Below, piece by piece: positions 13,529 through 14,597 of a stretch of 16,521 nucleotides of DNA. The notes beneath the pieces are model-generated. The model had not been told where the DNA came from, did no database searches, and worked only from the letters and a program-made list of their open reading frames with translations. The DNA is from a virus (taxonomy: Duplodnaviria > Heunggongvirae > Uroviricota > Caudoviricetes). The stretch lies in IMG/VR virus record IMGVR_UViG_2740892014_000012; one strand, given 5' to 3'. The position numbers and the translations under genes are program-made. The stretch's first letter is position 1. Every line of letters begins with the position of its first letter.

Positions 13529-13555
13529 GGGGAGGGCTTAGCCCTCCCTCTTTTT
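13529..13555. terminator. Bidirectional intrinsic terminator between the convergent adhesin and esterase genes
   Basis: GGGGAGGGC-TTA-GCCCTCCC perfect stem followed by TCTTTTT on the plus strand; on the minus strand the same hairpin is followed by an A/T-rich tract. Sits 12 nt after the adhesin stop and abuts the esterase stop. Confidence 0.7.
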
Positions 13556-14597
13556 ACAGGTTAGCGTTTGGGTTTTGTTGTTGGGGAGCTGTTTTTATAG
13601 GCGCTCCCAGGTTTTTAGTAAACCACTCAACGACTCTGTTTATAATAATTGGCTGATACCATGTCTTATCGCCATGCTCGGCCCCTTCTACCAGCACGTA
13701 CTCAGCGTTATCACCGTTCTTCTTCAACATCCTGAATAGTTTGGCGCTTTGCTCAGGTGAAACCAGAGTGTCTTTGCTACCATGCATAATAAGAAATGGG
13801 GGTTTTACTCCTTTCATATGTCCGATTGGACTGGCGTTTAGCGCTTTTTCTTTTGACGCTGTGATGGGGGCTCCCGCAAAATTTCTGAATGCAGGGCCAT
13901 TGATCATTAAGGCTTCGGTTACGGCAGGAGAGCGATGAACCTCCTGCACTGATTCAGGGAACCCCTCGCCAATATTCAACAAGTCAGAAATCCCATAAAG
14001 TGTGGCAACTGCCTGAACATCTGAGGATTGCTGAAGAAAGTCACCTTTATCAAAGGTTTTGTCACCATTTGTAGTTCCCATCATCTGGGCAAGCCATCCA
14101 CCGGCAGAGTCACCCAGAACTCCGATTCTTTGAGGATCAATCCCATAATTGCTGGCATGCTCTCTCAGGTAACGTATTGCAGCTTTTCCATCCTCAACTG
14201 GTGCTGGAAATGTATCAGGAATTGTTCTGTATTCTACAGCGGCCACAACAAAACCAGCTTCTGCCAGAGCCATTCTCATTTCAATAAATTTGTCATGTTC
14301 AGAAGACATGAATCCGCCGCCGGGATAATAAATAATGGCTGGTTTTAAATCATTTGTTCGCGGGACAAGAACTGACATGTGAAGCTGTCTGACAGAACGA
14401 GTTCCTTTTATCTGGGAATAAACAACATCACCAATGAGATCGACCTGGTTTCTGGTCGGTGAAACACTAATGATATCTGCACCCGGGGTGTAACCAGGAA
14501 GATTAGTCTGGACAGGTGTTGCACAACTCCCGACCGACATGGCCATTGACATACCATACAATAGTGTTGCAGATGATAATATCTTGTTAATTTTCAT
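13554..14597 (-). CDS. Secreted alpha/beta-hydrolase esterase/lipase (hormone-sensitive-lipase-like), probable lipoprotein, 347 aa
   Basis: N-terminal signal peptide with lipobox-like VGSC; oxyanion-hole motif YYPGGGF; nucleophile elbow GDSAGG (GxSxG); candidate acid in GSKDT and His in EGAEHGD near the C-terminus. Confidence 0.85.
   Translation of the reverse strand: MKINKILSSATLLYGMSMAMSVGSCATPVQTNLPGYTPGADIISVSPTRNQVDLIGDVVYSQIKGTRSVRQLHMSVLVPRTNDLKPAIIYYPGGGFMSSEHDKFIEMRMALAEAGFVVAAVEYRTIPDTFPAPVEDGKAAIRYLREHASNYGIDPQRIGVLGDSAGGWLAQMMGTTNGDKTFDKGDFLQQSSDVQAVATLYGISDLLNIGEGFPESVQEVHRSPAVTEALMINGPAFRNFAGAPITASKEKALNASPIGHMKGVKPPFLIMHGSKDTLVSPEQSAKLFRMLKKNGDNAEYVLVEGAEHGDKTWYQPIIINRVVEWFTKNLGAPIKTAPQQQNPNANL

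Follow-up and report, generated by a model that had tools for sequence, protein, structure and literature searches.

Why does a temperate phage of Escherichia coli carry a gene for a putatively exported esterase, and on what might the enzyme act? The question is raised by a stretch of 16,521 nt (IMG/VR record IMGVR_UViG_2740892014_000012, Caudoviricetes; hereafter the window, on the whole of which all positions are counted) that corresponds to the early region of a lambda-like E. coli prophage integrated beside icd, and in which an open reading frame (ORF) for an α/β-hydrolase runs antisense to the early-right operon (Table 1). As judged from its motifs, its signal and its setting, the product is very probably an active, exported esterase of the BD-FAE family that is carried as a moron. 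That its substrates are hydroxycinnamoyl- and acetyl-carbohydrate esters is suggested by homology and gene neighbourhood, and we would put this at slightly better than an even call. The reading taken as a whole, namely a lipoprotein BD-FAE-type hydroxycinnamoyl/acetyl carbohydrate esterase acting as a lysogenic-conversion moron, seems to us reasonably probable.

The protein is already annotated as 'alpha/beta hydrolase' in RefSeq and as 'esterase' in phage records and in PHROGs. Searches by accession or PHROG found no literature on it, and the prophage and inverse-autotransporter papers that were found make no mention of the esterase. We propose that the label 'Aes/HSL-like, substrate unknown' give way to that of a BD-FAE/FaeD-type plant-ester hydrolase, and we add a predicted clade-specific lipobox and a probable descent from a decarboxylase-linked gene.

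Catalytic residues and family assignment

The best Pfam match of the esterase is BD-FAE (PF20434), with 153.9 bits (cut-off 26.8, E = 5.7e-45) over profile positions 7–214 of 215. This model ranks first of 10 overlapping α/β-hydrolase models, with Abhydrolase_3 second at 81.3 bits. An initial annotation of the window had directed attention to Aes and the HSL-family esterases, a comparison that proved to be off the mark: the protein scores 57.5 bits with the NCBIfam model Aes NF007547 (cut-off 389), 54.6 with GTSAG_HSLs (380) and 47.4 with GESAG_HSLs (430), the LipQ, chloramphenicol hydrolase and PaeX models are likewise far under their cut-offs, and the oxyanion-hole motif reads PGGG, not HGGG. 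Among phage protein families the match is to phrog_3341, 'esterase' (E = 1.9e-129), a family that this esterase defines. By sequence and fold, the PDB neighbours are goat-rumen Lip_vut4 (6nkf), Thermogutta Est2, BD-FAE (6xyc/6tkx), Bacteroides GH43-CE (6mly) and a Caldicellulosiruptor acetyl-ester/xyloside hydrolase, a set that consists mainly of plant-biomass enzymes; BD-FAE itself is a biochemically proven feruloyl and acetyl-xylan esterase (PMC8165983).

The YPGGGF and GDSAG motifs and the C-terminal His that had been described as intact are so. In a family alignment of 51 members with 62–97% identity to the window protein, the fully conserved positions include G93–G95, D163, S164, G166, G167, D276 and H308. 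In an HMMER alignment to 6xyc, Ser164, Asp276 and His308 match the crystallographic triad of BD-FAE, Ser128/Asp237/His269 in the published numbering (PMC8165983), residue for residue. The AlphaFold2 model has a mean predicted local distance difference test score (pLDDT) of 78.7 and a predicted template modelling score of 0.79, with pLDDT values of 93–94 in the 10-residue blocks that contain the triad residues. It places Ser164 at the junction of strand 153–163 and helix 164–175, which forms the nucleophile elbow, Asp276 after strand 268–273 and His308 after strand 298–304, in the canonical α/β-hydrolase topology. The initial annotation had let its prediction stand or fall with the superposition of the catalytic residues, and at the level of the alignment and of the model topology these do superimpose.

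The extreme C-terminus (residues 342–347; window 13557–13574, minus strand) is conserved across the family despite the variable low-complexity linker that precedes it. It ends in (A/G/S)-N-L in 85 of 120 homologues (P0001–P0120), for example as NPNANL, DPDANL or DKNANL, and in A-S-L in eight more; this tail is modelled with low confidence and is not known to correspond to a sorting or secretion tag.

Homologues at 58–74% identity occur in Dickeya, Pectobacterium, Erwinia, Pantoea, Kosakonia, Klebsiella, Rhizobium and Agrobacterium, in leaf-isolate Sphingomonas and Methylobacterium, and also in gut Sutterellaceae; they are overwhelmingly chromosomal or plasmid-borne, in non-phage settings. The UniProt/UniRef entries of Dickeya aquatica give the name 'Ferulate esterase' to two neighbouring paralogues, P0068 (~65% identity) and P0170 (47%), and FaeD and FaeT are CE10 feruloyl esterases of Dickeya (PMC10319131). 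The Dickeya loci (L002–L004, 8001–13076) hold two BD-FAE paralogues ~3 kb apart, both with N-terminal signal peptides, with a major facilitator superfamily transporter gene and a LysR gene between them. Hassan and Hugouvieux-Cotte-Pattat (2011) reportedly found faeD to be induced by ferulic acid via an adjacent activator, and one of the two enzymes FaeD and FaeT has reportedly been found to be cytoplasmic. The record PHB10 (MK524177.1; L016, 1–7900; 73% identity) was considered as a second phage lineage and rejected. Its esterase gene is flanked by LysR regulators, an amidohydrolase, a gluconolactonase and reductases, and it is not counted as an independent phage acquisition because these surroundings look like bacterial chromosome within the record.

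Signal peptide and lipobox

The lipoprotein-like signal proposed in the initial annotation is recovered by lipobox patterns used with controls. The N-terminus, MKINKILSSATLLYGMSMAMSVGS-C25-ATP, fits both PROSITE PS51257-like and DOLOP-type patterns, with positively charged K2 and K5, an uncharged stretch from I6 to M20 and a lipobox of the form [LVI][ASTVIG][GAS]-C within the first ~35 residues. The DOLOP pattern also recovered, as a positive control, the Rz1 spanin lipoprotein of the same prophage; scans of two overlapping sequences, with 76 and 172 ORFs, yielded two distinct antisense ORFs as false positives, and 1.3% of shuffled N-termini match it. We regard the signal as real, in the sense of a pattern-based prediction. 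A lipoprotein with a residue other than Asp at position +2 is sorted to the outer membrane under the Lol rule, and outer-membrane sorting is predicted here because the residue at +2 is Ala.

A neighbour-joining tree of the mature domain renders the window protein monophyletic with P0001–P0005, P0156 and P0157. Within this clade six of the eight members have a Cys at the lipobox position (as VGSC, STGC or SAGC), and no sequence outside it does, the remaining family members having no Cys at the end of the signal. Cys25 is retained in five other copies of the phage lineage, namely that of phage Perceval, those of three E. coli chromosomes and that of Escherichia sp. L017, and the sister sequences P0002, P0003 and P0004 have it as well. 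The distribution suggests that the lipobox is a derived trait of the clade, which comprises the phage lineage and its nearest sequenced relatives, including non-phage copies linked to a decarboxylase gene.

Metagenome contig L010 (515–7229) carries a second esterase lineage, at 80% identity and with the lipobox STGC, that is without a decarboxylase gene and adjoins a SPATE-type serine-protease autotransporter and a PerC-family regulator; the cluster of this lineage, P0003, includes E. coli-annotated proteins. This contig appears to represent another mobile, virulence-type context of the same esterase clade.

Relatives linked to a phenolic acid decarboxylase

The closest non-phage relatives of the esterase, P0002 (79% identity), P0004 (75%) and a gene on the E. 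coli IncF plasmid pSCU-105-1 (75%), sit 12–33 nt downstream of a phenolic acid decarboxylase gene, whose product is a full-length homologue of the Enterobacter ferulic acid decarboxylase (3nx1/4uu3; E ~1e-96). A divergent LysR gene lies upstream of the decarboxylase gene in both loci in which that flank was read (L005 and L100), and in one E. coli genome the decarboxylase and esterase products bear consecutive accessions. Among 80 species-level loci the decarboxylase gene is directly upstream and in the same orientation in 12, with a decarboxylase pseudogene nearby in one more, and together with its LysR gene it constitutes the most widely recurring neighbour families. The pairing is seen in Serratia, Symbiopectobacterium, Mangrovibacter, Acinetobacter, Aeromonas, Azospirillum and Martelella, that is, in both gamma- and alphaproteobacteria.

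An esterase that frees hydroxycinnamates and a decarboxylase that acts on the freed acids form a coherent two-step pathway, and the pairing is the strongest functional clue available. The substrates that had been suggested initially, namely a host lipid, acyl groups of a surface polysaccharide or a signalling molecule, are none of them the best supported, as homology and neighbourhood favour plant-derived hydroxycinnamoyl and acetyl esters. A locus of this kind, hereafter the pad-fae operon, is probably what the phage copy derives from.

The same evidence bears on whether the protein could be a general lipase or a short-chain carboxylesterase with lipids of the host or of bacteria as its substrates, in the manner of a virulence-type lipase. 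Such a role would agree with source annotations that read 'acetyl esterase/lipase', with the naming of the top PDB match (6nkf) as a lipase, with weaker matches to LipQ, LipP1 and HSL models, and with the presence of an adhesin gene next door in a pandemic extraintestinal pathogenic E. coli clone. However, all lipase and HSL scores in NCBIfam are far under their cut-offs (e.g. 83 against 700 bits and 79 against 350), the best Pfam model is BD-FAE, the conserved neighbour is a ferulic acid decarboxylase gene and not one of lipid metabolism, the family is concentrated in plant-associated bacteria, and the linkage to the adhesin is not conserved. We consider a lipase of this kind unlikely.

An independent cassette in the early region

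That the gene is phage-borne, as stated initially, is confirmed by the lambdoid genes on both sides. The left part of the window encodes integrase, excisionase, exo/bet/gam, a CI-like repressor, Cro, a YdaT-domain protein, O and P; these are followed by a 1,421-residue inverse-autotransporter adhesin (plus strand), the esterase (minus strand), ybcN (at the ninB position), ninE, ybcO and rusA, and the full prophage continues past rusA with Q, the lysis genes, iss/bor, terminase, and head and tail genes.

The same esterase with the same leader fills the same slot in phage Perceval (Bievrevirus) and in two chromosomes, L097 and L098. The Perceval-type sequence is 99% identical at the nucleotide level from window position 13550 past 15300, its upstream neighbours are ren-emrE-ybcK in place of the adhesin gene, and the homology stops at 13550, 4 nt beyond the esterase stop codon. 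The GC content of the esterase gene is 0.40–0.46, and that of the two cargo genes together (adhesin and esterase) 0.35–0.46, against 0.51–0.55 in the flanking phage genes. The slot between P and ybcN/ninB, the deviant GC content, the antisense orientation and the alternative neighbours in related phages are those of a moron, to which a putative promoter may be added. The esterase is an independent cassette, made up of the ORF and the leader of ~350 nt, in a P-to-ninB moron hotspot; in the DLP12 prophage of K-12 this slot is occupied by ybcL-ybcM. A decayed prophage remnant in a soil isolate (L099) also keeps the esterase intact, along with the adhesin.

Since it is antisense to the early-right operon, the esterase gene needs a promoter of its own. 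The leader contains weak sigma-70 candidates only, the best of which is a TG-extended TACAAT at ~14890–14896, ~290 nt upstream of the esterase. Three inverted repeats are found in the leader, at 14654–14725, 14863–14880 and 14896–14922: a 10-nt inverted repeat with a spacing of 52 nt, a perfect 8+8 palindrome (TTGATTAT-ga-ATAATCAA) and a perfect 9-bp hairpin (TCACCGGAG/CTCCGGTGA) that overlaps the best −10 candidate. They are possible operator or attenuator elements. No structured RNA was detected by Rfam at gathering thresholds in the leader or in the rest of the window.

The setting is also informative on roles in which the enzyme would serve the phage itself. α/β-Hydrolase esterases are annotated in mycobacteriophages and other phages, and the protein might by analogy be a phage life-cycle enzyme, either a lysis accessory (LysB-like) or a virion depolymerase-type esterase. 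Its gene, however, belongs to the early region, where it runs against the early-right operon and is a long way from both the lysis cassette and the tail genes; the protein carries a predicted Sec/lipoprotein signal and is kept in a degraded, non-functional prophage, while the mycobacteriophage esterases are just 29–31% identical over part of the protein and the best viral structural matches (BFVD) have at most 17% identity; we regard a life-cycle function as extremely improbable. It might instead modify the envelope for the benefit of the phage, by de-O-acetylating the host O-antigen, capsule or surface glycan and so causing superinfection exclusion or a serotype change. Phages are known to alter O-antigen acetylation by lysogenic conversion, the esterase is prophage-encoded and predicted to be an envelope-targeted lipoprotein, and there are BD-FAE relatives with acetyl esterase activity on polysaccharides. 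Yet the homologues are overwhelmingly chromosomal or plasmid-borne and non-phage, the sister genes are in an operon with the decarboxylase gene, the carriers come from many hosts and environments, no glycan-synthesis partner gene lies near the esterase gene, and PADLOC gave no match to a defence system, so that no anti-phage defence role is indicated. Envelope modification therefore strikes us as a very unlikely function.

Distribution and selection

Esterases of this type were initially thought not to be common phage morons, which is incorrect for E. coli. The ORF is present in 681 of 5,426 complete E. coli genomes, with 671 of the 681 copies near full length, and at 98% amino acid identity it is carried by eight phage genome records (Lambda_4C10, 4A7 in two records, D2, 1W, 3W, Perceval and PhiR47_2). 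Given these numbers and a PHROG family of its own, the gene is a common cargo of E. coli lambdoid phages and no rarity. The carriers listed are from human, koala, bat, dolphin, dog, chicken, soil and river, and include strains of sequence type 131 (ST131)/O25b:H4.

The esterase is under purifying selection. The ratio of non-synonymous to synonymous substitution rates (dN/dS) is 0.11–0.19 within the phage lineage, where divergence permits the test, and 0.03–0.09 in comparison with the sister lineages, where dS is saturated; disrupted copies are few. The active, exported esterase predicted by the initial annotation is a reasonable reading because the catalytic motifs are conserved, a lipoprotein-type signal is present and the gene is under purifying selection, at dN/dS values of 0.03–0.2 overall.

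These data also allow the possibility to be weighed that the gene is a functionless passenger, hitch-hiking on a successful prophage and a successful clone (ST131). This view retains some weight because many of the carriers may be clonal relatives: identity reaches 99% or more for 635 of the 681 genome copies, which, with ST131/O25b:H4 strains among the carriers, would agree with an over-representation of clones. The gene moreover lacks its native regulator and its operon partner, and no clear promoter was found in the leader. Set against this are dN/dS values well below 1, including 0.11 and 0.19 within the phage lineage, the small number of disrupted copies and the retention of the cassette in two phage backbones as well as in a decayed prophage, and on balance we think it unlikely that the gene is without function.

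Proposed role in the lysogen

We favour a model in which the protein would be exported by the Sec system via its lipoprotein signal peptide, cleaved by signal peptidase II at Cys25, lipidated on this Cys and, through Lol sorting directed by the Ala at +2, anchored in the outer membrane. There, the Ser164-Asp276-His308 triad, assisted by an oxyanion hole of backbone amides from the GGG loop, would hydrolyse feruloyl, p-coumaroyl, caffeoyl (e.g. chlorogenate) and/or acetyl esters, the targets in the gut being oligosaccharides of plant origin and small phenolic esters that arrive at the cell envelope. The lysogen may gain the released sugar or quinate, or may change its phenolic environment. As a self-contained moron antisense to the early-right operon, the cassette is proposed to be expressed from the lysogen, and we infer a fitness benefit for the host rather than a function in phage replication.

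Several observations weigh against this model. Concerning the enzyme, model confidence is low at residues 1–28, 50–69 and ~225–245 (the last a likely lid), BD-FAE itself is only ~26% identical to the window protein, the link to FaeD/FaeT goes back to the naming of the D. aquatica proteins in their source, the closest PDB entry bears the name of a lipase, and substrate range in this fold is notoriously unpredictable. Concerning export, the h-region of the signal is only moderately hydrophobic, and Cys25 is replaced by Tyr in two lineages, P0001 of the phage lineage (4 contigs, compared with at least 1,000 that carry the window sequence) and P0005 of the pad-linked lineage (32 member sequences). 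This recurrence suggests that lipidation can be lost while the gene stays, and lipidation may accordingly be dispensable. Concerning the genomic context, promoter scans of the leader gave no convincing sigma-70 promoter upstream of the esterase, the phage copy has lost both its decarboxylase and its LysR partner, with no decarboxylase remnant found in the window by tblastn (the best match, E = 0.59, being inside the esterase ORF), and the decarboxylase-esterase operon is present in just 2 of the 5,426 complete E. coli genomes. With the partners lost and the operon rare in E. coli, the role in the phage context may have shifted.

If a hydroxycinnamoyl/acetyl esterase is indeed encoded, lysogens would release ferulic, caffeic or p-coumaric acid, together with sugar or quinate, from dietary fibre and chlorogenic acid, and the cassette would supply the gut bacterium with a phage-encoded auxiliary metabolic gene for polyphenols from the diet. 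A prophage would then be the source of a plant-phenolic ester hydrolase in about one in eight sequenced E. coli, some of ST131 among them, and phage carriage would bear on how dietary fibre and polyphenols are metabolised in the gut, perhaps also on fitness during colonisation. Three chlorogenate-hydrolysing strains of E. coli from human faeces were described by Couteau et al. 2001, as cited in PMC10340781, and this work is also cited in PMC4335975. The strain-variable chlorogenate hydrolysis of faecal E. coli, long known and genetically unassigned, would thereby be explained. This wider reading, in which E. coli, ST131 included, would owe its cinnamoyl/feruloyl esterase activity chiefly to a temperate phage and not to its core genome, is tentative, and we lean towards doubting it. 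The cassette would also exemplify an operon gene, from a decarboxylase-esterase pair, that has been shorn of its partner and regulator and repackaged as a phage moron. Should the activity fail, it would be an ordinary cargo gene, already annotated as an 'alpha/beta hydrolase'.

The adjacent adhesin and other features of the prophage

The positions of the esterase features and of the neighbouring elements are collected in Table 1. Functional coupling between the esterase and the adhesin encoded next to it was considered and rejected: in Perceval-type phages and several chromosomes the esterase is accompanied by ren-emrE-ybcK instead, there is a break in homology between the two genes, and the 3′ end of the adhesin gene occurs in 560 of the 5,426 genomes as against 681 for the esterase. 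The hairpin between the two genes is assigned to the adhesin cassette because homology with the Perceval-type phages ends at 13550.

Table 1. Esterase gene, its functional sites and neighbouring elements in the window
Feature	Position	Strand	Description
Esterase coding sequence	13554–14597	−	Single ATG-to-stop ORF, 347 residues; BD-FAE-family α/β-hydrolase; identical to RefSeq WP_000700202.1
Signal peptide with lipobox (predicted)	14523–14597	−	Residues 1–25: n-region MKINK, h-region ILSSATLLYGMSMAM, lipobox S-V-G-S-Cys25, Ala at +2
Oxyanion-hole motif Y-P-G-G-G-F	14310–14327	−	Residues 91–96; P92, G93, G94, G95 and F96 invariant in 51 homologues
Nucleophile elbow G-D-S164-A-G-G	14097–14114	−	Residues 162–167; Ser164 codon 14106–14108; aligns with GFS128SGG of BD-FAE
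Catalytic Asp276 codon	13770–13772	−	Motif HGSKD, residues 272–276; invariant; aligns with BD-FAE Asp237
Catalytic His308 codon	13674–13676	−	Motif GAEHGD (AEHGD = 306–310); invariant; aligns with BD-FAE His269
Leader/promoter region	14598–14946	−	~350 nt, non-coding; accompanies the esterase in every phage arrangement; putative promoter function
GC-rich hairpin	13529–13549		Lies where the adhesin and esterase genes converge; resembles a terminator on either strand, with a T-run on the + (adhesin) side only
Inverse-autotransporter adhesin moron	9252–13517	+	1,421 residues; Pfam IAT_beta and Big_1/Invasin_D3; context, independently acquired

The adhesin is phage-borne in its own right (phrog_7803/16344). 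Its gene contains a tandem array at 10561–11623 with 3.0 copies of a 357-nt (119-residue) unit at 98% identity. The allele of the soil isolate L099, at 1,183 residues, is exactly two repeat units shorter, and the repeat number thus varies. The size of the adhesin, compared by size alone, fits none of the six E. coli inverse autotransporters described by Goh et al. 2019 (PMC6714894; FdeC 1,415 residues). Elsewhere in the window, the YdaT-domain protein is encoded at the cII position (6749–7288). The prophage in L001 (strain 81009; the region of window 1–1143 beside icd) also has iss/bor and a TonB-fragment gene, so that with the YdaT-domain gene this prophage has several genes of lysogenic-conversion type beyond the two in the window.

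Comparison with known systems

With family IV esterases of the Aes/HSL type (Abhydrolase_3) the protein shares the superfamily, the GDSAG nucleophile motif (G162-D-S164-A-G166) and a GGG-type oxyanion loop. It differs in having Pro, invariant in its own family, in place of the His of HGGG, in the location of the acid residue in an HGSxD motif, in scores far under the cut-offs of the models and in its predicted export, the Aes/HSL enzymes being cytoplasmic.

BD-FAE (6xyc/6tkx; PF20434), encoded in a polysaccharide utilization locus of gut Bacteroidetes, represents the best Pfam family and matches over nearly the full length with the triad aligned; the fold match has a template modelling score of 0.62 when normalised to the query and of 0.73–0.75 when normalised to the target. 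At ~26% identity the two proteins differ in the oxyanion region, which reads YGSAWF in BD-FAE and YPGGGF in the window protein, and in context, since BD-FAE belongs to a xylan utilization locus whereas the phage esterase is in a prophage and its sisters are in a decarboxylase operon.

Dickeya FaeD and FaeT (formerly CAZy CE10) resemble the phage protein in family, length (~330–345 residues), export signal, triad and the PGGGF and GDSAGG motifs; identity is ~65% to the D. aquatica protein P0068 and 47% to its paralogue P0170, and a LysR regulator is nearby in the native loci. The Dickeya signals, in contrast, do not end in a lipobox Cys, and FaeD leaves the cell through the Out type II system (PMC9007343), whereas the phage protein has a lipobox that probably anchors it to a membrane. 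The phage protein is also phage-borne, in a gut bacterium without pectinolytic machinery.

The pad-fae operon of E. coli (LysR gene, phenolic acid decarboxylase gene and α/β-hydrolase gene on IncF plasmid pSCU-105-1) is alike in species, in lipobox clade and, at 75% identity, in the esterase itself. It differs in that the phage copy is without the decarboxylase and LysR genes and has an unrelated leader of 350 nt, and the operon is rare (2 of 5,426 genomes) whereas the phage copy is common (681 of 5,426).

A conceptual precedent is provided by the NanS-p 9-O-acetyl-sialate esterases of Shiga toxin (Stx) prophages, which are E. coli esterase morons thought to unlock a gut carbon source. NanS-p differs from the BD-FAE-type esterase in its SGNH/DUF1737 fold, in its position in the late region downstream of stx and in its substrate; the two are alike as prophage esterase morons.

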